From Pseudoalteromonas tetraodonis (GTDB lineage: Bacteria > Pseudomonadota > Gammaproteobacteria > Enterobacterales > Alteromonadaceae): DNA of 32,000 bases. The stretch lies in assembly GCF_002310835.1 (NCBI RefSeq), contig NZ_CP011041.1:2550001-2582000 (forward strand), written 5' to 3'. The position numbers and the translations under genes were made by a program. The notes beneath the pieces were generated by a model. It saw nothing but the letters and a program-made list of their open reading frames with translations, was not told where the DNA came from and ran no database searches. Within the stretch, counting starts at the first letter, position 1, and each line of letters opens with the position of its first letter. Of the stretch, positions 5,536 to 16,701 are shown in pieces.

Positions 5536-6447
5536 ATGTCTCTGGTTTATGCATGTCCTTTATCACATCAGGTTATTAGCCTCTCAGGCACAGATAAATT
5601 ATCTTACCTACACGGACAAATCACTCAAGATCTCAATAAAATCAACAACAACAACTTTTTGTGGACAGGTCACTGTAGCGCAAAAGGTAAGCTGTGGGGT
5701 GTATTTAAGCTATTTTCTTACCAGCAAAACTATTATTTAACCGGATCAAGTGCTGAAGTAGAACGCTCACTGGCTGAGTTAAAAAAATACGCTGTATTTG
5801 CAAAAGTTGAAATTAATAAAGCCCCAGAGCGATTAATTGGTTTATTAGGTGATGACCTAACTGATTTGCTTACGCAACTTGATATTCACTTTAGTGACGA
5901 TGCCACAGCATGCGACTTTGCTAACGGCAAAGCCCTTAAACTTGCGCCAAACCGCGTTTTACTTATGGTTGATAGCCAATTTTGCTTACCTGATGAAGTA
6001 TCTACCCTCGACAACGACGCTATGTGGCAACAGGCCTCACTGCTAGCTGGTGAGCCTCAGTTAAGCGTTGATGCAATTGATGAGTATGTGCCGCAAATGG
6101 TTAACCTTCAAGCCATCAATGGCATCAGTTTTAAAAAGGGTTGCTACACCGGCCAAGAAACCGTCGCACGTATGAAATACTTAGGTAAAAATAAACGTGC
6201 CATGTATATCGTTACAGGGCAAAGTGAAGGATTGCTCGATGCACCCGATATCGAAACCCAGTTAGGTGAAAACTGGCGCCGCGCGGGCAAACTTATTGCG
6301 CAAAGCTTTAATGAAAAAACACACACTTTAACTGGCTTAGTTGTGTTGCCAAACGATACTGACACCGCTCAGGTTCTTCGTGCAAAACATACCCCTTCGG
6401 TAGAGCTAAACATTCTGCCTCTACCTTACTCTCTTGAAGATGAATAA
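5536..6447 (+). CDS. ygfZ: tRNA-modifying folate-binding protein YgfZ
   Basis: C-terminal KGCYTGQE motif typical of YgfZ/GcvT-like proteins. Divergent from sdhE, as in E. coli. The ATG at 5536 is preceded by AAGAAGG. The ORF-track start is 5503. Confidence 0.85.
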   Translation: MSLVYACPLSHQVISLSGTDKLSYLHGQITQDLNKINNNNFLWTGHCSAKGKLWGVFKLFSYQQNYYLTGSSAEVERSLAELKKYAVFAKVEINKAPERLIGLLGDDLTDLLTQLDIHFSDDATACDFANGKALKLAPNRVLLMVDSQFCLPDEVSTLDNDAMWQQASLLAGEPQLSVDAIDEYVPQMVNLQAINGISFKKGCYTGQETVARMKYLGKNKRAMYIVTGQSEGLLDAPDIETQLGENWRRAGKLIAQSFNEKTHTLTGLVVLPNDTDTAQVLRAKHTPSVELNILPLPYSLEDE

Positions 6448-6458
6448 TAGGAATGACT

Positions 6459-6944
6459 ATGATCGTTGCAGCAAATAAAGTGGTAAAAATGCATTACTCT
6501 GTACTAGATAATGACGGCAATACCATTGATAACTCATTTGGCGGTGAGCCATTAATTTTTATCGTTGGTACGGGTTACCTGATCTCAGGACTTGAAAACG
6601 CGCTGCAAGGCAAACAAGCTGGCGATACACTAAGTGTAAAAGTTGAACCTGAAGAAGGTTACGGTGAGCGTCATGATCACCTAATGCAAGCCGTGCCAAA
6701 ATCAATGTTTGAAGGCATGGACATTGAAGTGGGCATGCAATTTCGTGCAACCACCGATGACGGCGACCAGTCAGTCATGATCATCGATATTCAAGACGAA
6801 GAAGTGATTGTTGATGGTAACAACCCACTCGCTGGTATTACGCTCAATTTTGATGTAGAGATTTTAGAAGTACGCGATGCAACGGCTGAAGAGCTTGAGC
6901 ATGGCCATGTACATGGTGAAGGCGGTTGTGGTCACGACCACTAA
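6459..6944 (+). CDS. slyD: FKBP-type peptidyl-prolyl isomerase / metallochaperone SlyD
   Basis: FKBP fold with an IF-domain insertion and a His/Cys-rich tail (HGHVHGEGGCGHDH). The ATG at 6459 has AGGA 6 nt upstream. The ORF-track start is 6453. Confidence 0.9.
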   Translation: MIVAANKVVKMHYSVLDNDGNTIDNSFGGEPLIFIVGTGYLISGLENALQGKQAGDTLSVKVEPEEGYGERHDHLMQAVPKSMFEGMDIEVGMQFRATTDDGDQSVMIIDIQDEEVIVDGNNPLAGITLNFDVEILEVRDATAEELEHGHVHGEGGCGHDH

Positions 6945-6960
6945 GCCCTAATCCAGTAAT

Positions 6961-6987
6961 AAAAAAAGCGCCTCAGGCGCTTTTTTT
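6961..6987. terminator. Bidirectional rho-independent terminator
   Basis: A7-GCGCC-TCA-GGCGC-T7, lying between the convergent slyD and the 161-aa membrane protein gene. Confidence 0.85.
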
Positions 6988-7471
6988 ATAGCATATTATT
7001 ATGCGTACGTAATTTAACTTGAGGCTCTGCTGCTGGTGCTTCGCCAGGGGTTATTTTATCTTCAAGTGCAGCAACTAATCCGGCTTGGTCATTAGTGCCT
7101 AAGCGGTATTGGCTGCCATCTTTAAGCGTTAATTGCACGGCACTAAAGCCTGATACTGAATAAATCCAACCATCATGCGTAATGCGAATACCAATACCGT
7201 GACGGTATGAGTTTTGTACTGCTTTTACGTCAACTATGTCCTCTAGTGCTAATTTTTGACCCGCAACGCCTGGACCAAATGCCCAGCTAATATGGGCTTC
7301 ATCAACTTTAATGGTTAAACCATGAAATAAAAAACCCACCAGCAATAAAATACCTGCAAATACCATTAACGGCACATCGGCACCCATTAAATTCCATGCA
7401 AGTGCAACAAACCCACCTATCCATGCCAATACTACAAATATAAATATCGCATACTGCTTATGCTGATACAT
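6986..7471 (-). CDS. Hypothetical membrane protein (two N-terminal TM helices plus a small soluble domain)
   Basis: 161-aa ORF with two hydrophobic helices in the first 55 aa. I did not recognise a family. Confidence 0.6.
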   Translation of the reverse strand: MYQHKQYAIFIFVVLAWIGGFVALAWNLMGADVPLMVFAGILLLVGFLFHGLTIKVDEAHISWAFGPGVAGQKLALEDIVDVKAVQNSYRHGIGIRITHDGWIYSVSGFSAVQLTLKDGSQYRLGTNDQAGLVAALEDKITPGEAPAAEPQVKLRTHNNML

Positions 7472-7498
7472 AACACTCTCAATTAAAAAGTTAAAAAA

Positions 7499-8311
7499 TT
7501 AAAAACTGTATACTAACGTTGCGCTGAGCTCTGAATCATATTTAAGCTTATCTTCTTCAGGCTTAGAGTTATAACGGTACATATAAGCAAACTTGAGCGA
7601 TACAGCCCCAACCACTTGGCTAATTAAGGCGGTTTCTGACTTTAACCGTGAGTTAAGCCCAGATAAAGACTGCTCTATACTAATGTCTTGATTAAATCGG
7701 GTGCGCTTAGATACTAATCGCTCCCATTGCATGGCAATACGTAACAAGTAACCCATTTTGTCTTTATCGTCTTCGCTTATTGTTGACTCATCATCAGCAA
7801 CGGAGCGATATAAACCAGGGCCAATATCTATATCTACTTTATTTTTAACCCCTTGATAAATACGTGCACCATAACCGGTTGCCACCGTACTTTTAAAATC
7901 AAGACCGCTAAATTCATCCTCTTCATAATCGCCATAAATAAAGAAAGACGAATTTTTAACACCAACTTTATAGTTACCCTGCGCAGAAACAAACACGCGA
8001 TTAGCCGTAACATCCGACTGGCCCGTTTCTTCATTTTCGTCACGTTTGTATAAGGAATCTATTTTGAATTGATTACGCCAGTTTTCAAAATCTTGGTAAA
8101 GATTACCTTTGAGTTTAAAACTGGTTGAGTTGGTATTACCTTTACTTAAAATAAAACCAAACTCGGTATCACCATAAAGTACTTCGCCTTTGTGTAGCTC
8201 ATGAATTTCTTCATCAGAGAGCTCCCCATATTGATGAAAATCTTCAAAGGGATCTACTGCCCAGCTGTAGGAGCTAAATAATAAAAGCAGTAATACAACG
8301 TACTTTCGCAA
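7499..8311 (-). CDS. DUF481-like (YdiY-like) outer-membrane beta-barrel protein
   Basis: Signal peptide ...VVLLLLLFSSYSWA, GNTNS motif, alternating beta-strand pattern and C-terminal ...TLVYSF. I propose a TTG start at 8309-8311. The longer ORF to 8407 has no signal peptide at its N-terminus and overlaps the upstream gene. Confidence 0.6.
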   Translation of the reverse strand: MRKYVVLLLLLFSSYSWAVDPFEDFHQYGELSDEEIHELHKGEVLYGDTEFGFILSKGNTNSTSFKLKGNLYQDFENWRNQFKIDSLYKRDENEETGQSDVTANRVFVSAQGNYKVGVKNSSFFIYGDYEEDEFSGLDFKSTVATGYGARIYQGVKNKVDIDIGPGLYRSVADDESTISEDDKDKMGYLLRIAMQWERLVSKRTRFNQDISIEQSLSGLNSRLKSETALISQVVGAVSLKFAYMYRYNSKPEEDKLKYDSELSATLVYSF

Positions 8312-8357
8312 AATACATTCTCTTGCAAATGGTAATAATGAAAAGGGGCCGAAAAAG

Positions 8358-8678
8358 TTATTCACTTTCTTTCCATAAAATATGGCAAAAAGGCGCGTCT
8401 TTATCACGGCTAATTAAAATTTTCGCAAATAAGACGTCTTCGTTATCAAACTCAAGGCCTACTAATACTTGAATAAAATGCTCAGGCTCTATTTCTAGTG
8501 CAACAAAATCTTGCCACTGTTCATCGGGCTCATCTTCTTCAATAAAGCCAAGTTCTTCACGATGCAGGTTAAATTCTTCAACATCTTTATCACTCAGGTT
8601 GTTGGGAGCCAGCTCCAAAAAAATATCATAAGCTTGATGGGTTGCTTCTTCTACCGTAAATAAACGTGGACCTGACAT
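8358..8678 (-). CDS. yciU: dsDNA-mimic protein (YciU / HI1450 family)
   Basis: 106 aa and highly acidic. EEATHQAYDIFLELAPNNL...FAKILISRDKDAPFCHILWKE aligns by eye with E. coli YciU (EQAYDIFLELAADNL...[21 protein letters not shown]). Confidence 0.8.
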   Translation of the reverse strand: MSGPRLFTVEEATHQAYDIFLELAPNNLSDKDVEEFNLHREELGFIEEDEPDEQWQDFVALEIEPEHFIQVLVGLEFDNEDVLFAKILISRDKDAPFCHILWKESE

Positions 8679-8816
8679 GAGTGGTTAACCTCTGAGCTTT
8701 TAAGTTGGCGCCATAATATCAAAAGTTGTTAGTGTTTTGATAAAAAAAACACGTTAAATACTGACTTTTTTACTTTTACCTAATACTTATAGATATTAAT
8801 GGATTGGTTAGCATTA

Positions 8817-8865
8817 GGGTCTGTTGGCCTTTCAAGATTAAGTTTGCCTTGAAAGATAACAGACC
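8817..8865 (+). repeat. Palindromic intergenic repeat, copy 1 (REP/MITE-like)
   Basis: GGGTCTGTTGGCCTTTCAAG...CTTGAAAGATAACAGACC with nested inverted repeats. It is clearly similar by eye to the reverse complement of 18218-18274. Confidence 0.65.
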
Positions 8866-8968
8866 GCAATTGCATTAAAAAATTCACTTTGTTTTTTATT
8901 CATCTTCATCCACTTTACTTAGCACGAATAAAAACATAAGCTCAAGTAACAGGTCAGAGGAGTGCGAG

Positions 8969-9760
8969 ATGATAAAACTAGAAAAAAAACAGGGCATTGC
9001 CACCGTCACATTAAATCGAGTAGAAAAACAAAATGCCTTAAGCTTTACTATGTTTATTGAGCTTAACAAGGTGATTAAAAATATTAAAAAAGATGCCAAT
9101 ATTCGTGCGGTTGTATTAACCGGTGAAGGCGAACACTTTTGTGCAGGGCTTGATATTAACGCGGTTATGGCCTCGCCAATAAATATTATAAAACTCCTAT
9201 TTAAATGGCTTCCTGGTAATCAAAATTTAGCGCAAAAAGTAGTACTTGGTTGGCAATCATTGAGTGTGCCTGTTATTGCAAAAATAAACGGAAATTGCCT
9301 TGGGGGTGGATTGCAAATAGCACTGGGTGCCGATTACCGGATTGTTCACCACGATGCCAAACTCGCCATTATGGAAGCGCGCTGGGGGTTATGCCCAGAT
9401 ATGGGCGCTAATGTTATGCTTTCAGGCTTAGTAAAACGCGACCAAGCGCTTTGGTTAGCAAGTCACGCAAATCCAATAAACGCACAACATGCTTTTGAAC
9501 TAGGTTTAGTAACCAAAACAACCGACGATACAGATAAAGCAACTAAAGAGATGCTTGATACACTGCTAGCGCGCTCACCTGACACATTAGCTGCAATAAA
9601 GCGTGTAACTCAACAAAGCTATAAAGCCCCTGCTCGAAAAATACTCGCTAAAGAAACATGGAGCCAAATTCGCTTACTGATCAACCCTAATACTAAAAAA
9701 GCCATTGCTAAAGCTAAAGGGAAAGCTGATATTGAGTTTACAAACGCCAAGCGCTGGTAA
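8969..9760 (+). CDS. Enoyl-CoA hydratase/isomerase (crotonase) family protein
   Basis: 263 aa. Crotonase pattern: VTLNRVEKQNALS, FCAGLDI, ING.CLGGGLQIALGADYRI. GAGGAG Shine-Dalgarno upstream. Confidence 0.85.
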   Translation: MIKLEKKQGIATVTLNRVEKQNALSFTMFIELNKVIKNIKKDANIRAVVLTGEGEHFCAGLDINAVMASPINIIKLLFKWLPGNQNLAQKVVLGWQSLSVPVIAKINGNCLGGGLQIALGADYRIVHHDAKLAIMEARWGLCPDMGANVMLSGLVKRDQALWLASHANPINAQHAFELGLVTKTTDDTDKATKEMLDTLLARSPDTLAAIKRVTQQSYKAPARKILAKETWSQIRLLINPNTKKAIAKAKGKADIEFTNAKRW

Positions 9761-11801: not shown

Positions 11802-11826
11802 TTAATATGATTTTAAATCATATTAA
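11802..11826. promoter_or_regulatory. 25-bp perfect palindrome immediately upstream of the STAND-regulator gene
   Basis: TTAATATGATTT-T-AAATCATATTAA: 12-bp perfect arms around one central base. It lies in the 76-bp gap between the mscS-like stop and the 11869 start. Whether it is an operator or a weak terminator is unresolved. Confidence 0.3.
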
Positions 11827-11868: not shown

Positions 11869-14800
11869 ATGCATCAATCACCTTTTTATCTAGGCGACTG
11901 GCAGGTAACACCTGCCAGCAATTGTATACAATGTGCTGAAAAAGTAACGCAATTAGAACCTAAAGCAATGGATGTATTATTATATCTTTGCTTACAAAAA
12001 GGCGATATGGTCACCAGCGACGAATTACTCAATCAGTGCTGGCAAAACATTGAAGTAGGCGATAACCCACTGCATAAAACCATCACACAACTGCGAAAAG
12101 CACTGGGTGATAAGGCAAGCTCCCCGCTATACATAGAAACCATTCGCAAACGCGGCTACCGTATTATTGCAAAACTTGAGTTTCCATTTGCAGAAGATAC
12201 ATCAAGCTCTATAAATACGTGGCAAGGCGGTTCTCCTTTTTTAGGTTTAAGCGCGTATAACCCAACCGATACCCATTTATTTTTTGGTCGAAACCAAGCC
12301 ATCACCACCTTACTCGAAAACGTATCAAACCAAGTGAAATGTGGTCGTGCTTTTTGCTTAATACTTGGCCCAAGTGGTACGGGTAAATCGTCGTTAGTCA
12401 ATGCGGGTATTTTACCAAAGCTACTTGATGAGCGTGGTTATGATGGTATTGGCGTTGTTTCATACACTCAGCTCGACTTTGCAGATGTGCATCAAACTAG
12501 GCTGTATTTAGATTTAGCCTCTGCCATGCTTGATTGGGATATAAACCAACACCCCGTATTTGAAGGATTAAGCTCGCAAACACTGGCGCAGCAATTAGAG
12601 CACACAATTGACGAAGTGATAAACACGTTACAAACTGCAATCAGTAAGGCAAATACAAAACTAAACACACCGCAGTTTTTTTTGTTTATAGACCGCTTAG
12701 AGGTGCTGCTTTCATCGCCACTATTTAGTCCCAACACCCGAAGTCATTTTTTATCGATTATTGAACGTTTAGCCACCTCTAAAGCGGTGATCGTATTTAG
12801 TGCGTGTCGTAACGACTTTTACCCTTTAGTGGTTGAGCAACCCAGCCTTATGGCCGCAAAAGCGAATGGCGCCCATTATGATTTAACCCCGCCCAACCGC
12901 CAGGAACTACAACAAATTATTCGCTTGCCGGCATTAACCGCTAATTTAACGTTCTCACACGACCCGCAAACCAAAACTCCGCTGGATGAAATACTGTGTG
13001 CCGATACCGCCAACAACCCTGATGCCCTGCCCATGTTGCAATACACACTGCAAGAGCTGTATTTACAGCGCAGTGAAAATAATGAGTTATTGCACAGCGT
13101 GTATGAAAAACTCGGCGGTATTGAAGGCGCCATTGGTAAAAAGGCAGAAGATGTTTTTATTGGGCTGAGCGCAAAACAACAACAGCAACTAAAAAGCGTA
13201 TTATCGCAGTTAGTGACGCTAAACCCAGATGGTAAAACCATTACTAGCCGTGCGGCCCGCTTACAAGCATTAACCAACACCAGCCAAAAAGAGCTTGTAC
13301 AAGCCATGGTCGACAGTCGCTTATTTGTATCGCACTTACAAAACCAAGAAGCCTGCTTTAGCCTTGCCCACGAGGCATTATTACGCCAATGGCCACGTGC
13401 CAAACAGTGGATAAACGATCATAAAGATGCCCTTGCTATTAAAAGCCGTTTGCACCACCACACGCAACAGTGGCTTAATGAACATAAAAGTAGCGCTTAC
13501 CTATTAGCACCGGGTAAACCATTGCAAGAAGCGCTCACGTTATTAAACGACAATATATTCAAACTAGACAATGACGAACGCGCCCTTATAAATAACTCTC
13601 TCAAAAATAGTAAAACAAAAACAATAATAAAACGCGGCACGATTGCACTGCTTTGCTTACTTACCTGTGTTGCCCTATTCATGAGTTTCACTAGTTTTCA
13701 AGCGCAGCAACTTGCACAGCAAAAGCGCCAAGAGGCCGAAAGCCTACTTGGCTTTATGGTCGGTGACTTTGCCGATAAGCTGCGCAGCGTTAAGCGTATG
13801 GACTTACTTGATGGCATTAGTAATAAAGCGCTGGAGTATTTTACCAATCAAGCAGAAGAGCCCAGCTCTCTTTTTAGTTTTAACGACCAAAAAGCCGAAT
13901 TTAACAACCGCTTTCAATATGCACAAACTCTTGAGGCCATGGGCGAAGTGGCCTATTCGCGCGGTAAAACCAATGAGGCTAAAACCGCCTTTGAAAACGC
14001 CCGCACGCGTCTTGAGGCACTTTTAAAAATACAACCAAATAATTTAGAACTACTCACCCTTGCCGGTGCCAATGCCTTTTGGCTCGGTCAGCTTCATTAT
14101 GATAAAAGTGATTACGCTGCTACTGAGCCATTATTTAAAAAATATCATGCCTACAGCGAGAAAATGTATTCATTAGCACCCAATGACTTTAACTCCATTA
14201 TGGAGTTGTCGTATTCACATAATTCATTGGGGTCTTTGTATTTAAAGCAATTTAACTACACTGGCGCGAAACAACGCTTTACAGAGTCGCTCGCCCTTAA
14301 AAATGAAGCCCTTGAGCTTAAACCCAATAACAAAAATTTATTGCGCGATAAAGCAGACACCATTAGTTGGCTTGCAAAAACTGAAGAAAGGCTTGGTAAC
14401 TTTAATGCCGCATTAACCATGTATGAAAATGCATCTAATGAGTTAAAAAGTTTATTAATTGAATATCCAGATGATGCCAGTTTATCAAGCAGTTTAGCTT
14501 ATACTTATATTCAACAAAGCTACCTTTTGAGCTACCTGCCAAATAAACAACCAGCCTACAAAAAAGCACAGCAAGCCACAAAAACAGTTAATACCGCACG
14601 ATTGCAAGATCCAAAAAGTAAAGACATTCAACATTCTTATTATCGTTTTTTAGCCCACCAGCTAATGCTTTCACCTAATAAAAACATTGATAACCGAGTT
14701 AAGGATATTATTAACTTTTTGAAAGTGCAGGACTTTAAAAATAACTTTGCAATTAATACTCAATTGATCCTTATACAGTACTTTATTGATAGACAGTCAC

Positions 14801-15123
14801 CACTTAAAGCATATGAGTTTTTAACAGCCCTTGAAAATGATACAAGCTACCAACAGTACATAGCTAATAAAGCAAAGAGTGGTGATAATGTAGACTTTAC
14901 GAATATAAATTTACTTAAAGCTAAATTAGCTGAAAATACCGTACAGCGAGAGCAATTTTGCTTAAATGCGCTTAAAGCCATTGCTGAAACAGTAAAAATA
15001 AACCAAAGCGTTCACGTAACGCACCCGCTGTTACAGGCATATACCTGCTTAAATAGAGCAAACGAAATCCCCAAAATAAAAGCAAGTCTAGTTAAATTAG
15101 GCATTACTCACTTTAAACTATAA
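11869..15123 (+). CDS. Membrane-anchored transcriptional regulator: CadC/ToxR-type winged helix + STAND (nSTAND-like) P-loop NTPase + TM helix + TPR-like repeats
   Basis: aa 8-103: OmpR/PhoB-type wHTH (LEPKAMDVLLYL...TITQLRKALGD...IETIRKRGYRI). aa 122-141: SPFLGLSAYNPTDTHLFFGRN lead-in. Walker A GPSGTGKSS at nt 12367-12393. Walker B-like FFLFIDRLEVLL (aa 270-281). CRNDFY (aa 313-318) and ALPMLQYTLQELY (aa 386-398) resemble conserved nSTAND motifs as I recall them. Hydrophobic segment TIALLCLLTCVALFMSFTS (nt 13639-13695) is preceded by KTKTIIKR. The C-terminal half is helical-repeat rich. Confidence 0.8.
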   Translation: MHQSPFYLGDWQVTPASNCIQCAEKVTQLEPKAMDVLLYLCLQKGDMVTSDELLNQCWQNIEVGDNPLHKTITQLRKALGDKASSPLYIETIRKRGYRIIAKLEFPFAEDTSSSINTWQGGSPFLGLSAYNPTDTHLFFGRNQAITTLLENVSNQVKCGRAFCLILGPSGTGKSSLVNAGILPKLLDERGYDGIGVVSYTQLDFADVHQTRLYLDLASAMLDWDINQHPVFEGLSSQTLAQQLEHTIDEVINTLQTAISKANTKLNTPQFFLFIDRLEVLLSSPLFSPNTRSHFLSIIERLATSKAVIVFSACRNDFYPLVVEQPSLMAAKANGAHYDLTPPNRQELQQIIRLPALTANLTFSHDPQTKTPLDEILCADTANNPDALPMLQYTLQELYLQRSENNELLHSVYEKLGGIEGAIGKKAEDVFIGLSAKQQQQLKSVLSQLVTLNPDGKTITSRAARLQALTNTSQKELVQAMVDSRLFVSHLQNQEACFSLAHEALLRQWPRAKQWINDHKDALAIKSRLHHHTQQWLNEHKSSAYLLAPGKPLQEALTLLNDNIFKLDNDERALINNSLKNSKTKTIIKRGTIALLCLLTCVALFMSFTSFQAQQLAQQKRQEAESLLGFMVGDFADKLRSVKRMDLLDGISNKALEYFTNQAEEPSSLFSFNDQKAEFNNRFQYAQTLEAMGEVAYSRGKTNEAKTAFENARTRLEALLKIQPNNLELLTLAGANAFWLGQLHYDKSDYAATEPLFKKYHAYSEKMYSLAPNDFNSIMELSYSHNSLGSLYLKQFNYTGAKQRFTESLALKNEALELKPNNKNLLRDKADTISWLAKTEERLGNFNAALTMYENASNELKSLLIEYPDDASLSSSLAYTYIQQSYLLSYLPNKQPAYKKAQQATKTVNTARLQDPKSKDIQHSYYRFLAHQLMLSPNKNIDNRVKDIINFLKVQDFKNNFAINTQLILIQYFIDRQSPLKAYEFLTALENDTSYQQYIANKAKSGDNVDFTNINLLKAKLAENTVQREQFCLNALKAIAETVKINQSVHVTHPLLQAYTCLNRANEIPKIKASLVKLGITHFKL

Positions 15124-15146
15124 CCACGAATACAAAAGGAAATAAT

Positions 15147-15524
15147 ATGGATAGCTCTCAAGAACAAATTAACTTTACTGTAAATATTGAATTAGACAGT
15201 AACGACAACGCCAATTTTACATACTTTAAAGATAACAAAGAAGTCTCTGGCGGTGGCGTTGTTAGAACTGAAACCGCAGGTATTTATAGCTTAAATGAAG
15301 CAACACTTGCTAAAGGTTTTTTATTCACCGGAGCCACTATCACTGATAAAGAAGGCGACTGTGCTGGTGATTTTAAATCAGAAATCAATGATGATGGCCA
15401 ATCAATCACCATCACAGACACAGATGAAAATAATGGCACTGTGTGTTTAATATTTAATGTTGAGTGCAATGGTAAAGCCTATGAAAGCGCCGACCCACAA
15501 ATTGAAAATAAAGACAAAAATTAA
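15147..15524 (+). CDS. Small acidic hypothetical protein, probably co-transcribed with the STAND regulator
   Basis: 125-aa ORF starting 23 nt after the upstream stop, with AAAGGAAA Shine-Dalgarno 6 nt before the ATG. No signal peptide. D/E/N/T-rich with a beta-strand-like alternation. C-terminal ADPQIEN motif. Confidence 0.7.
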   Translation: MDSSQEQINFTVNIELDSNDNANFTYFKDNKEVSGGGVVRTETAGIYSLNEATLAKGFLFTGATITDKEGDCAGDFKSEINDDGQSITITDTDENNGTVCLIFNVECNGKAYESADPQIENKDKN

Positions 15525-15561
15525 TCAACAACGCTTAATATTTAATTTTTGTTTTCCAAAT

Positions 15562-15586
15562 TGCACAGGCCTTTAACGCCTGTGCA
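15562..15586 (+). terminator. Hairpin after the small gene, a weak or atypical terminator
   Basis: TGCACAGGC-CTTTAAC-GCCTGTGCA, a perfect 9-bp stem. It is followed by ATAATAAAAAA rather than a T-tract. Confidence 0.35.
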
Positions 15587-15705
15587 TAATAAAAAATACT
15601 ATTAATCAAAAACTTAAAAGCAGAAGATTACCGAAAGGTTTAATTGCACTTTTTTATGTAAATTTGTAGACATCAAAAACGTCTGTATCATGCTAAGGCT
15701 AAAAC

Positions 15706-16701
15706 GTGTCTAAACAAATTAATAAAAAAGAGACTCCAGCGGTTAAAAACGATAAAGCACTCCCCTTCGATTGCGCTTTATCGAGTCCTTTTTCTCATAC
15801 CCAATTTGGCGCTTTAATTGAATTATTTAACGGCACCGCCGAAGGCATTTTTGTACTTAATGAGCACGGTGGTTTTGAGTTTGCAAACCCAAAAGCAGCA
15901 CAGCTATTAGGTTACTCTCAGCAATCTCTAATAGGCGAAAATTTACTGTCGTTTTTACACGGTGCAGACCTTGATAAATATAAACAGACCTTATTAAATT
16001 GGGTAGACATTAAAGATACTACCCTTAGCTTTGGCCCAAATGAAATAAAAATAAATAAAGCGAATGGTGATGTTATTGAAGCAGACTTATCAATATCAAG
16101 CATGCCAAAAAGTATTGCATCGGCGCAAAAATTATACGTTTGCATACTTCATGATCTTAGTACGCATAAAGCCATGTATAACCGTTTAAAAATACAGGCC
16201 TCAACCGATCACTTAACTGGGCTCGCTAATCGTTTAGCTTTAGATGAGTCACTAAAAAAATACTGGCAAGAAAGTATTCAAAGCCAACAACCTCTAACCA
16301 GCATATTGATTGATGTTGACCACTTTAAAAAATTCAACGACACCTATGGGCATATTAAAGGTGATAAATGCTTACAAAAAATTGCAAAAATGCTTTTGCA
16401 TTGTATTCCGTCAAGAGAGTGTTTGGCTGCGAGATATGGCGGTGAGGAGTTTGCTATTATTTTACCGCGTTGCGATATAAAAAGTGCAACGATTGTTGCC
16501 AAGCATGTACAACAACAAATTAATGCGATGACATTTACAGATATAGGCCTACCACCGGAGGTTAAAGTTAGTGTAAGCCAAGGAATTGCCAGTGAAAATA
16601 ATAACCAGTACCGCACCTACGAGGCGCTGTTATATGCCGCAGACACGGCTTTATACCGAGCAAAAACAGAAGGTAGAAATAAAATAAGTACGATTGTTTA
16701 A
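15706..16701 (+). CDS. PAS-domain diguanylate cyclase (GGDEF)
   Basis: 331 aa. PAS-like N-terminal domain (AEGIFVLNEHGGFEFANPKAAQLLGY) and a GGDEF domain with an intact RYGGEEF active site. GTG start with TAAGG 7 nt upstream. Confidence 0.85.
   Translation: MSKQINKKETPAVKNDKALPFDCALSSPFSHTQFGALIELFNGTAEGIFVLNEHGGFEFANPKAAQLLGYSQQSLIGENLLSFLHGADLDKYKQTLLNWVDIKDTTLSFGPNEIKINKANGDVIEADLSISSMPKSIASAQKLYVCILHDLSTHKAMYNRLKIQASTDHLTGLANRLALDESLKKYWQESIQSQQPLTSILIDVDHFKKFNDTYGHIKGDKCLQKIAKMLLHCIPSRECLAARYGGEEFAIILPRCDIKSATIVAKHVQQQINAMTFTDIGLPPEVKVSVSQGIASENNNQYRTYEALLYAADTALYRAKTEGRNKISTIV

Follow-up and report, generated by a model that had tools for sequence, protein, structure and literature searches.

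On balance, the locus described here, which lies in the 32,000-nucleotide stretch of DNA from the marine bacterium Pseudoalteromonas tetraodonis that was analysed (the window), appears to be a signalling module of three genes that is conserved in Alteromonadales-type gammaproteobacteria, comprising a regulator gene (BIG), a gene for a small protein of the DP-EP (DUF1888) family and a gene for a PAS-GGDEF diguanylate cyclase. The module probably makes c-di-GMP synthesis respond to a signal from outside the cell, and even close relatives differ sharply in the outermost portion of its presumed sensor. More than 1100 homologues of the regulator were found, no functionally characterised one came to light, in agreement with the preliminary description, and the module is a variant on known kinds of system (STAND activators and ToxR-like regulators).

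The regulator reading frame (11869..15123, + strand, 1084 aa) and the DP-EP reading frame (15147..15524, + strand, 125 aa) were confirmed where they had been described before, separated by 23 nt with AAGGA 5' of the second ATG, and Pfam bore out the identities given earlier to the neighbours of the pair, an MscS-like gene and the PAS-GGDEF gene. Conservation was assessed over 80 species-level orthologous loci from at least 10 genera. The DP-EP gene lies 3' of the regulator gene in 79 of these loci (median gap 22 nt), as expected from the proposal that the small gene is kept next to homologues, and a PAS-GGDEF orthologue follows in the same orientation in 70. Only these three gene families (regulator 80, DP-EP 79, PAS-GGDEF 70) are conserved over the set, every other neighbour being common to at most 16 of the 80 loci.

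Architecture and topology of the regulator

The ORF, Pfam matches, homologues and the AF2 model agree on the order winged helix, nSTAND1 NTPase, transmembrane (TM) helix and TPR-like solenoid, and all four parts named in the preliminary description are present (Pfam, hydropathy, AF2). The profile search proposed there returned Trans_reg_C at aa 26-99 (E 4.3e-16), nSTAND1 (PF20703) at aa 123-541 and several weak TPR matches at aa 690-885. The CadC/ToxR-type DNA-binding domain (aa 1-105; 11869..12183, + strand) has no receiver domain, and the proteins of solved structure closest to it in sequence are CadC (DNA-binding domain, 5ju7, E 2.9e-15) and ToxR (E 6e-9); its recognition-helix residues G64-K77 are largely invariant in the orthologue alignment. 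The NTPase module (aa 123-541; 12235..13491, + strand) covers profile positions 1-377 of 379 (E 2.1e-87; 294.7 bits vs a cutoff of 27.1), which upholds its placement in the nSTAND class. The motifs listed earlier were all located, namely GL..Y/FFGR at 126-141, GPSGTGKSS at 167-175, FLFIDRLEVLL at 271-281, CRNDFY at 313-318 and ALPMLQYTLQELY at 386-398. Its landmarks, Walker A G167-S174 (K173), Walker B D275/E278, R314, P388 and H501, the last in an 'AHEALLR' motif after the winged-helix hairpin, are invariant in 80-81 orthologues. The AF2 model of the regulator (mean pLDDT 81.5) resembles STAND-TPR proteins, 6mfv being the best Foldseek match. Relatives with the same NTPase-TM-TPR chassis carry, instead of the winged helix, an N-terminus of about 200 aa that weakly resembles DUF4062, which is consistent with the earlier view that a DNA-binding domain here takes the place of another N-terminal module.

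A TM helix with N-in/C-out orientation is predicted at aa 590-610 (13636..13698, + strand) from hydropathy, flank charge and the orthologues. The hydrophobic segment IALLCLLTCVALFMSFTSF (aa 592-610) has a Kyte-Doolittle 19-mer mean of 2.29, and the 15 residues N-terminal of it contain five K/R and no acidic residue. Across the 80 orthologues the position and charge bias are kept, with 5.3 K/R and 0.2 D/E on the N side and 2.8 K/R and 1.8 D/E on the C side, which supports the topology proposed earlier. AF2 renders the segment helical with low confidence (aa 594-671 being a low-confidence region). Hydropathy, flank charge and a conserved cysteine pair, the sole basis of the topology, suggest that the regulator is a single-pass inner-membrane protein whose cytoplasmic half joins the winged helix to the NLR-like NTPase switch and whose outer half is the TPR-like solenoid. 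Next to the membrane lies an invariant juxtamembrane motif containing AESLLGFMVGDFADKLRSVKRMDLLDGISNKALEYF (aa 616-660; 13714..13848, + strand), defined by invariant columns in alignments A1 and A2 and also present in P0351, P0363 and P0374, relatives with a different N-terminal module. The TPR-like solenoid C-terminal of the TM helix spans about 400-470 aa, and AF2 predicts the repeat solenoid that had been postulated as an all-helical structure at aa 674-1076 (pLDDT mostly >90).

The variable cassette and the DP-EP protein

The solenoid is divided into two parts of very different conservation. The membrane-proximal repeats (aa 674-840; 13888..14388, + strand; pLDDT >90) show 86-92% identity between species pairs whose NTPase cores are at least 93% identical, whereas the distal repeats (aa 841-1084; 14389..15123, + strand) show 53-63% identity among close species pairs. 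Nucleotide identity to L001 drops from 90-100% to 46-80% at about 14389, and dS against the closest relative is 1.26 for the distal repeats and 0.86 for DP-EP, compared with 0.17 for aa 1-840 and 0.13-0.17 for the flanks. To judge from these sequence comparisons, DP-EP and the final ~245 aa of the repeats presumed to be periplasmic form a recombining, hypervariable cassette. Within the hypervariable tip, both cysteines of the pair C1031/C1060 are present in 79 of 79 sequences. DP-EP and the tip vary together (partial r 0.48 given the N-terminal part of the regulator); this co-variation falls smoothly as distance from DP-EP grows, and in several close species pairs the tip has been replaced (31% identity) with DP-EP still 92% identical. 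As a separate observation, DP-EP has no signal peptide yet co-varies with a tip presumed to be periplasmic, which the preferred explanation accounts for by physical linkage only.

The small protein, previously described as an unknown acidic protein (pI 4.05), belongs to the known family DP-EP/DUF1888 (PF08985, E 6.2e-17), in which Shewanella SO1698 has crystal structures; it matches SO1698 by sequence with E 5e-5, and its AF2 model matches 3nji with TM 0.73/0.77. No hydrophobic segment or export signal was found in it by sequence analysis. Among 26 divergent orthologues the only invariant columns are F60, S114, D116 and P117, three of which form the S114-A-D116-P117 site near the C-terminus (15486..15497, + strand), and the titles of PDB entries name the SO1698 mutants S114A, D116A and P117A. 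By family, the window protein is a candidate self-cleaving-type DP-EP; it does not share D37 and K98 with SO1698, so that self-cleavage is no more than putative in its case. The suggestion that it is the first regulated target was not borne out: the gap before its gene is short, neither promoter nor box (see below) was found in the 23 nt, and a terminator-like hairpin with a T-run follows DP-EP in 46 of 72 orthologous loci, so that DP-EP is better regarded as a co-expressed partner. In the window, RNAfold gives a 9-bp G+C-rich hairpin at the corresponding place (TGCACAGGC-cttTaac-GCCTGTGCA; 15562..15586, + strand) that has no T-run and was not called by a consensus terminator scan; it is the probable end of the regulator/DP-EP transcription unit. 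DP-EP, a cytoplasmic beta-sandwich with an invariant Asp-Pro, may modulate or report on the regulator, and this role is the weakest link of the scheme.

The tandem repeat and the cyclase promoter

A tandem direct repeat with an 11-bp period, CAGAAGATTAC CGAAAGGTTTA (the box; 15621..15642, + strand), lies over the -35 position of the PAS-GGDEF promoter. The repeat (CAGAAGGTTAC-CAGAAGGTT) is conserved across genera, whereas the surrounding intergenic sequence is not, and its GAAGGT cores are essentially invariant. With a box PWM of 32.9 bits, the site at 15621..15642 reached a score of 34.3, against 15.1 for the best shuffle and -0.7 for the runner-up within the window, where the exact pattern is found a single time vs 0 expected. 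Of 81 sources, 73 contain the box, in every case on the + strand and 3' of DP-EP. The PWM scan gave no further copy elsewhere in the 1.19 Mb examined and none upstream of the regulator operon. A -10-like hexamer, TAAATT (15659..15664, + strand), begins 18 nt past the second repeat, and TAnnnT is present at this offset in all 66 distinct box sequences vs at most 11% at any other offset; the would-be -35 (AGGTTT) agrees with the consensus in one of six bases. In 70 cases the first ORF past the box is PAS-GGDEF, and in loci with transposases or other genes inserted behind DP-EP the box keeps its place beside the cyclase gene. In the two loci that have the box and lack a cyclase orthologue, a gene for an AraC-type regulator comes after the box, which fits a portable operator.

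Direct repeats of 11 bp over the -35 position are bound by tandem OmpR/PhoB-type winged helices, as is established for PhoB pho boxes, and the only protein of this type encoded in the locus is the regulator. By this analogy, the box is likely a PhoB-like activator site, which would make the cyclase gene, rather than that of DP-EP, the likely direct target. The predicted target (15706..16701, + strand, 331 aa; Pfam, orthologues) contains a GGDEF domain (E 8.4e-46) and a sensor PAS domain (E 7e-18); its GGEEF is intact, RYGGEEF is invariant in orthologues, and the RxxD I-site is absent from its sequence.

The explanation that we hold to be best, with moderate confidence, runs from a periplasmic cue through the STAND switch and box binding to cyclase transcription and higher c-di-GMP. 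The solenoid would bind the cue, probably via its variable distal repeats, and binding could alter the association of the invariant juxtamembrane/TM segment. The NTPase might then be able to swap ADP for ATP and to self-associate, which would bring a pair of winged helices, arranged head-to-tail, onto the tandem repeat of 11-bp period that stands in for the -35. Transcription of the diguanylate cyclase gene would thereby be turned on and c-di-GMP would rise. The sensor arm of a classical STAND protein is in contact with the NTPase, whereas in the regulator the two would be on opposite sides of a membrane, so that the coupling mechanism is conjecture.

Alternative explanations and related systems

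Binding of the box by the regulator is a prediction from sequence, and any response regulator of the OmpR family with its gene elsewhere could occupy the box. In that case the box would be the site of a different OmpR/PhoB-family protein, the STAND regulator would have other targets, and its linkage to PAS-GGDEF would reflect a shared pathway. The lack of a box upstream of the regulator operon itself would agree with this; it is nonetheless unlikely in view of the co-occurrence of box and regulator in 73 of 81 sources from genera whose other flanks all differ, the confinement of the box to this site within the 1.19 Mb, and the essential invariance of both recognition helix and GAAGGT cores. 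Quite improbable is a cytoplasmic solenoid, with the hydrophobic segment not spanning the membrane or acting as a peripheral anchor, that would sense DP-EP or its C-terminal tail as a matched receptor-ligand pair. TPR domains commonly bind C-terminal peptides, DP-EP has no export signal and co-varies with the tip, and in 6 of 80 orthologues the hydrophobicity maximum lies elsewhere (about aa 290-316). However, the hydrophobic stretch is fixed in position with its sequence drifting and its N flank strongly K/R-rich, the invariant cysteine pair in a hypervariable tip is consistent with a periplasmic disulfide, the smooth decay of co-variation is what linkage predicts, and the tip has been replaced beside a nearly unchanged DP-EP.

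The nSTAND1 family was defined in conflict systems (PMC8195603), chassis relatives have the weakly DUF4062-like N-terminus, and immune STANDs typically have a hypervariable sensor at the C-terminus, all of which would suit an anti-phage or abortive-infection system whose TPR tip senses an invader and whose winged helix is the effector or alarm output. A periplasmic sensor would, however, miss phage proteins in the cytoplasm, a cyclase promoter is the conserved output, the locus is chromosomal with synteny stable within clades, no meaningful PADLOC match to defence-system models was obtained at it, and no defence genes are among the conserved neighbours of the 80 loci; such a function is therefore very improbable. 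The same chromosomal setting makes the label of accessory unit doubtful. The preliminary description had also considered the regulator and the small gene, paired as they are in 79 of 80 loci, to be self-contained, the small protein being a ligand mimic or first target and PAS-GGDEF an unrelated neighbour. This is contradicted by the conservation of PAS-GGDEF as third member, by the sole conserved operator-like site of the locus lying before it and by the 23-nt gap devoid of promoter and box, and we give it hardly any credence.

Like ToxR/CadC/TcpP-type TTRs, the regulator has an N-terminal OmpR-type winged helix without receiver, one TM helix and a C-terminal, presumably extracytoplasmic, sensor. 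Unlike them, it has a STAND NTPase of ~480 aa between winged helix and membrane, a predicted periplasmic part that is a ~470-aa TPR-like solenoid instead of a small CadC- or ToxR-type domain, and a partner without signal peptide or TM helix, in contrast to ToxS, TcpH and VtrC. A survey of TTRs has ATPase domains of the AAA_16 type in only 34 proteins and does not discuss them (PMC10269533 supplement). With the STAND activators MalT, AfsR and GutR, the regulator shares a DNA-binding domain, a NOD-type NTPase switch and a helical-repeat sensor, together with Walker A/B, the sensor arginine and the His after the winged-helix subdomain. AfsR likewise carries an OmpR-type winged helix at its N-terminus, and its binding sites are direct repeats. 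It has been cited as a non-immune STAND (PMC13581612). In contrast, these activators are soluble with the sensor arm contacting the NTPase, whereas in the regulator a TM helix divides them, its NTPase belongs to the nSTAND1 clade and not to the MalT/MNS or AP-ATPase clades, and no BTAD domain was detected in it with Pfam. The nSTAND1 NTPases of predicted conflict systems (Kaur, Burroughs, Iyer, Aravind 2021, eLife; PMC8195603) are of the same Pfam family (full-length match, E 2e-87), and relatives have the chassis of NTPase, TM helix, juxtamembrane motif and TPR; the regulator differs in its specific DNA-binding domain in place of an effector or adaptor, in its context of a cyclase gene rather than effector or EAD genes, and in a sensor predicted outside the cytoplasm.

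SO1698 of Shewanella oneidensis (DUF1888/DP-EP; PDB 3n55, 3njf-3njn) resembles the window DP-EP in Pfam family, length, fold (TM 0.73-0.78) and S114/D116/P117, and differs in the D37 and K98 noted above. To our knowledge, work on it has been confined to structural genomics of the isolated protein, with no biological role or partner reported. Osipiuk et al. are said to have described, in J Biol Chem in 2012, its self-cleavage at D116-P117 and a K98-D116 link. The neighbouring SO1699 carries the annotation 'transmembrane transcriptional regulator' (PMC7253198); gene numbering and annotation make it the probable orthologue of the regulator. As in class II PhoB pho-box promoters, two 11-bp direct repeats abut the -10 at a fixed distance in the place of the -35, and the window promoter has no usable -35 hexamer; on the other hand, its half-site differs (RGAAGGTT), and the presumed activator would be switched by an NTPase instead of by phosphorylation.

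Architecture and predicted topology of the regulator

The two open reading frames of the preliminary description, at 11869-15123 and 15147-15524, both on the + strand and 23 nt apart, with the Shine-Dalgarno sequence AAGGA preceding the second, were confirmed, as was every other detail of that observation. The first encodes a regulator of 1084 aa with an OmpR-type winged helix at its N-terminus (Trans_reg_C, aa 26-99, E 4e-16) and without a receiver domain. Among solved structures, the closest by sequence to this winged helix are the DNA-binding domains of CadC (5ju7, E 3e-15) and ToxR, and the match of the NCBIfam CadC model is confined to aa 1-107. The P-loop region expected from the sequence was identified in Pfam as nSTAND1 (PF20703, aa 123-541, E 2e-87), with profile positions 1-377 of 379 aligned at 294.7 bits against a cutoff of 27.1, and the expected TPRs appeared as scattered weak matches at aa 690-885. 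K173 (Walker A), D275/E278 (Walker B), R314, P388, and H501 are invariant among 80-81 orthologues; by analogy, K173, D275/E278, R314, and H501 can be assigned as the lysine, the acidic pair, a sensor arginine, and an MHD-like histidine, respectively. H501 lies within AHEALLR, directly after the winged-helix hairpin, and in the AlphaFold2 secondary structure a β-hairpin (486-499) is followed by the HEALL helix, an arrangement that may resemble the MHD motif of NB-ARC proteins. By its profile match, its landmark residues, and its C-terminal repeat sensor, the regulator is an nSTAND1 protein; a nucleotide-dependent oligomerization switch is a feature of this class and is predicted here by class.

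The AlphaFold2 model of the regulator (59-sequence alignment, mean pLDDT 81.5) consists, in order, of the winged helix, the NTPase and its winged-helix subdomain, a long helix that continues into a hydrophobic segment, and the repeat solenoid that had been anticipated, which is all-helical (aa 674-1076) with pLDDT mostly >90. Its top Foldseek match is the crystallized STAND-TPR protein 6mfv, followed by TPR solenoids. The sole strongly hydrophobic stretch of the protein is aa 592-610 (Kyte-Doolittle 19-mer mean 2.29); of the 15 residues ahead of it, five are K/R and none is acidic. In the set of 80 orthologues, mean counts are 5.3 K/R and 0.2 D/E for the N flank and 2.8 K/R and 1.8 D/E for the C flank. 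Hydropathy and positive-inside bias are kept among the orthologues, and AlphaFold2 confidence is low at the segment (aa 594-671). A single transmembrane helix with a cytoplasmic N-terminus is predicted from this hydropathy and flank charge. In the tip, that is, the distal TPR-like repeats (aa 841-1084), C1031 and C1060 are present in 79/79 sequences and lie on adjacent helices in the model; they fit a structural disulfide and thereby hint at a periplasmic location of the tip.

When 1.84 billion representative proteins were searched with a profile, 10,794 matched with E values up to 1e-30. Of the top 150 representatives, all of them pairwise <50% identical, most are 1,040-1,140 aa long and align over the full ~1085 positions, and the complete architecture therefore constitutes a sizeable family. 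In the relatives P0351, P0363, P0367, and P0373-P0375, the match begins at profile position ~113; these proteins keep the nSTAND1 domain, the transmembrane helix, the juxtamembrane motif, and the TPRs, and their N-terminus is a stretch of ~200 aa that is weakly DUF4062-like (E 0.004, below the Pfam cutoff). The earlier suggestion that the winged helix occupies the slot of another N-terminal module is borne out by these proteins. Database names for the family are "nSTAND1 domain-containing NTPase" and "winged helix-turn-helix domain-containing protein". In the literature searched, no description of this architecture, of the repeat element discussed below, or of a role for DP-EP was found, and the nSTAND1 papers, the STAND phylogeny, the 2020 conflict-systems paper, and the TTR survey do not describe the architecture. 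SO1699 of Shewanella oneidensis is probably an orthologue of the regulator, and it was met in the literature in gene lists only. The L127Q substitution of SO1699, annotated as a "transmembrane transcriptional regulator", arose in a chemostat-evolved S. oneidensis clone (PMC7253198); the site corresponds to L127 of the regulator (window 12247 region), within the invariant S-P-F-x-G-L lead-in.

A recurrent unit of regulator, DP-EP, and PAS-GGDEF cyclase

A one-genome-per-species scan yielded 187 relatives of the regulator, of which the best 80, 46-88% identical to the window protein, were kept; they come from Pseudoalteromonas, Paraglaciecola, Shewanella, Rheinheimera, Colwellia, Alishewanella, Arsukibacterium, Agaribacter, Alteromonas, and one Porticoccaceae MAG. 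Counted from the regulator side, the small gene that had been proposed as a partner follows directly downstream on the same strand in 79/80 loci (iterative HMM search of all ORFs), and the remaining locus ends at a contig edge. Clustering of neighboring ORFs gave just three families widely common to the loci, namely the regulator (80), DP-EP, and a PAS-GGDEF protein (70), any other family being present in at most 16. The PAS-GGDEF gene, orthologous to that at 15706-16701 (+), lies downstream on the same strand in all 70 loci, and five of the ten loci without it end within about 1.4 kb after DP-EP. This cyclase has a GGDEF domain (Pfam E 8.4e-46) with an intact RYGGEEF motif, invariant across orthologues, and no RxxD I-site. 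The gap between regulator and DP-EP has a median of 22 nt, and DP-EP and cyclase are typically about 170 nt apart; in 46/72 loci, the latter gap holds a G+C-rich hairpin and a T-run. In the window, the hairpin at 15562-15586 is of 9 bp and lacks the T-run. The two-gene reading of the preliminary description, in which the PAS-GGDEF gene was unrelated to the adjoining pair, is contradicted by the presence of that gene in 70/80 loci with a shared element upstream, and it deserves hardly any credence.

The small protein (125 aa, 15147-15524) belongs to the DP-EP family (DUF1888, PF08985; E 6e-17, 62.5 bits against a cutoff of 25) and is homologous to SO1698 of S. oneidensis (phmmer to 3njh, E 5e-5). 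Its AlphaFold2 model (pLDDT 78) superposes on SO1698 structures with a TM score of 0.73-0.78 in Foldseek. The PDB entries term SO1698 "an aspartic peptidase" and include the mutants Y26F, D37A, K98A, S114A, P115A, D116A, P117A, and Q118A. Self-cleavage of SO1698 between D116 and P117 was reportedly described by Osipiuk et al. in 2012 in J Biol Chem. Among 26 divergent orthologues, 17-65% identical to the window DP-EP, the sole invariant columns are F60, S114, D116, and P117, and the scissile site is therefore the conserved feature of DP-EP. A regular expression for the tail matches 83/83 DP-EP ORFs versus 3 of 3556 other ORFs. On the other hand, D37 and K98 of SO1698 are not conserved in the window protein, where G and C/V stand at the aligned positions, and its self-cleavage is therefore not assured. 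The protein has a pI of 4.05 and neither a signal peptide nor a hydrophobic segment (KD19 maximum 0.61). A profile search for DP-EP in a word-indexed database reached Pseudoalteromonas and Paraglaciecola only, and a literature search on SO1698/DUF1888 returned nothing relevant.

Several loci carry additional genes around DP-EP. A second DP-EP follows the first in some Rheinheimera and Shewanella loci (L056:9901-10659, L073:9895-10653, L080:9652-10437, and L069:10177-10611), and three of these proteins, 252-261 aa long, carry the domain in their C-terminal half. In two Pseudoalteromonas species, including the window's closest genomic relative L001, an insertion between DP-EP and the promoter element (L001:9895-12050, L009:9888-12108) carries genes for two secreted proteins: an S8 subtilase with a proprotein-convertase P-domain, the gene for which is frameshifted in L001, and an ORF_2_N (PF18492) protein of 146 aa whose last ~14 residues (LSADPQVENNKRPN / LSPDPQVKNREE) copy the DP-EP tail; the remainder is unrelated to DP-EP, and the tail alone was aligned by hhalign. 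IS200/RAYT-like transposase genes recur in the same spacer in Shewanella, Rheinheimera, and Paraglaciecola (L032, L035, L036, L038, L044, L054, and L059), and in L032 an insertion split one PAS-GGDEF copy, which is followed by a second promoter element and an intact copy. Locus L024 (NZ_JBGQOM010000001.1), titled Flavobacterium sp. W21_SRS_FM6, contains a Paraglaciecola-like orthologue (53% identity) and DP-EP, which may be due to horizontal transfer or to an assembly that is mislabelled or contaminated.

A direct repeat at the cyclase promoter

The spacers between DP-EP and cyclase genes are unalignable between genera save for one element, CAGAAGGTTAC-CAGAAGGTT, which consists of two copies of an 11-bp unit and is hereafter termed the box. 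A weight matrix of 32.9 bits built from this element found sites in 73/81 sources, all on the + strand downstream of DP-EP, and none elsewhere on either strand of the 1.19 Mb scanned. The window box at 15621-15642 (+) scores 34.3 bits, compared with -0.7 for the runner-up in the 32-kb window and 15.1 for the top of 50 shuffles. A TAnnnT hexamer follows the second repeat at exactly 18 nt in 66/66 distinct sequences, other offsets reaching at most 11%; in the window, this -10-like element is TAAATT at 15659-15664 (+). The exact pattern including the -10, CAGAAGRTTRNCRRAAGGTW-N18-TANNNT, occurs once in the window versus 0 expected. The bases at the -35 position, AGGTTT, agree with TTGACA at one position. 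Paired 11-bp direct repeats in place of a -35 element, at constant spacing to the -10, are the classic arrangement at promoters activated by tandem OmpR/PhoB-type winged helices, as established for PhoB, and the regulator is the sole protein with such a winged helix encoded in the locus. For these two reasons, activation of the cyclase gene by the regulator through the box would be the most economical reading.

The PAS-GGDEF gene is the first ORF past the box in 70 cases, and fragments of it are in two more loci. The box remains with the cyclase gene when IS200/RAYT-like transposase or other genes are inserted after DP-EP, and in the Colwellia and Porticoccaceae loci, which have no cyclase gene, it precedes a gene for an AraC-type regulator. 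Rfam gave no credible RNA family on 15100-15800. When autoregulation was looked for, no box was found in the regions upstream of the regulator, where conservation is clade-specific only. Within the 76 nt that separate the stop codon of the mscS-like gene from the start of the regulator gene, a perfect AT-rich palindrome, TTAATATGAT-ttTaa-ATCATATTAA, spans 11802-11826; only L001 has an identical copy, and the palindrome may serve as an operator or as a weak terminator. In Pseudoalteromonas simplex (L022:4754-4790), three tandem half-sites, CAGAAGATTAC twice and CAGAAGGTTAA, are found instead of two. One Paraglaciecola MAG (L054:11013-12884) has an extra box before the gene for a predicted lipoprotein of 558 aa that has a CxxCH motif at the C-terminus and no Pfam match, a candidate further member of the regulon.

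The variable cassette and the proposed mechanism

Nucleotide identity to L001 is 90-100% from the upstream genes through regulator codon ~840, 46-80% from 14389 through DP-EP to about 15600, and 94.5% from 15604 onward. Correspondingly, dS is 0.17 for regulator aa 1-840, 1.26 for aa 841-1084, 0.86 for DP-EP, 0.14 for the cyclase, and 0.13 for MscS, and dN/dS between the window and L001 is 0.21-0.26 inside this cassette of tip and DP-EP versus about 0.10 outside. The cassette is therefore an import from a divergent lineage and not a product of rapid evolution in place. The window DP-EP is more similar to its P. prydzensis counterpart (84%) than to the L001 protein (64%), whereas in the rest of the regulator L001 is the nearer of the two. 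In 77 species pairs whose NTPase cores are at least 93% identical, mean identity is 93-98% for regulator aa 1-660, 53-63% for aa 841-1080 (minimum 9-28%), 79% for DP-EP (minimum 42%), and 93% for PAS-GGDEF (minimum 54%). The pattern is present in Pseudoalteromonas, Rheinheimera, and Shewanella alike, and in some pairs the tip alone is replaced (31% identity, with DP-EP at 92%). No tandem repeats were found in the variable region. A sharply bounded, recombining hypervariable tip suggests a strain-specific cue and is unusual for a housekeeping-type regulator.

Long-range, cytoplasmic co-evolution of the regulator with DP-EP was considered and rejected: the farther a regulator block lies from DP-EP, the lower is its partial correlation, in a smooth gradient for which linkage is the better explanation. 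Identity to L001 also drops slightly (70-83%) at aa 641-680 (13789-13908), where an acidic loop with AlphaFold2 confidence <50 joins the juxtamembrane motif to the first TPR. In L008 (Pseudoalteromonas sp. RW-H-Ap-1, complete chromosome; 6001-9257), the regulator ORF ends at aa 910, in the hypervariable region, and the C-terminal piece forms a separate ORF (8898-9257); either the gene is a pseudogene or the break reflects a frameshift or an error in sequencing.

The best explanation, which is considered probable, is that the regulator is a ToxR-like membrane-tethered activator whose on/off state would be set by its NLR-type NTPase and which would drive the diguanylate cyclase gene via the box. 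The conserved juxtamembrane/transmembrane segment would transmit the signal, the variable tip would bind a cue differing between strains, and DP-EP would be a co-expressed cytoplasmic accessory that may, as a guess, modulate the switch. In that it would work as a STAND-gated activator, the regulator resembles MalT and AfsR, but it is not a member of those families: they are soluble, with a sensor arm able to touch the NTPase, whereas a transmembrane helix is predicted between NTPase and repeats here, and the LuxR-type HTH of MalT and the SARP winged helix with BTAD of AfsR are absent, Pfam giving no match to GerE/LuxR or BTAD in the regulator at E up to 0.1. The winged helix without a receiver domain is shared with ToxR and CadC, as its tethering to the membrane would be; however, the adjacent DP-EP does not correspond to a membrane-bound periplasmic partner such as ToxS, TcpH, or VtrC. 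STAND/NLR proteins are understood to be cytosolic switches in which the sensor arm directly gates the NTPase, and the activation mechanisms of the ToxR/CadC class are still debated. Here, the sensor would sit across the membrane from the NTPase, which would extend the STAND paradigm to transmembrane signaling and add an ATP-driven switch to the ToxR/CadC class. The DP-EP/SO1698 family, with a structure and no known role, gains its first biological context, and the predicted operator with its single adjacent target gene forms a directly testable pair. The module is widespread in marine bacteria and tied to c-di-GMP, and therefore probably to the choice between biofilm and motility.

Several alternatives were weighed against this tethered activator. 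Another regulator may bind the box, which is unlikely. The repeats could instead be cytoplasmic, with DP-EP or its tail as their ligand; DP-EP lacks an export signal, and the flank charge and the cysteine pair point to the other side of the membrane, so that this arrangement appears distinctly improbable. A conflict system is scarcely plausible despite the nSTAND1 domain: Avs-like anti-phage STAND systems have a toxic effector domain and a defence island, whereas the regulator has a winged helix with DP-EP and the cyclase as neighbors and no defence context, and PADLOC gave P-loop-level noise only (E 3e-4, aa 149-179). A more speculative proposal, to which little probability is given, is a polymorphic recognition system in which tip and DP-EP would be strain-specific receptor-ligand allele pairs, recombined as a cassette and setting c-di-GMP and surface behavior. 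If true, these would be set by the neighbors or self-derived material present, and the locus would be the NLR-based counterpart, in Gram-negative bacteria, of the agr or comQXP pherotype loci. Alternatively, the ligand of such a system could be a peptide with the invariant tail S-x-D-P-Q-[IV]-x-N, a sequence that the secreted protein inserted in the locus in two species carries as well.
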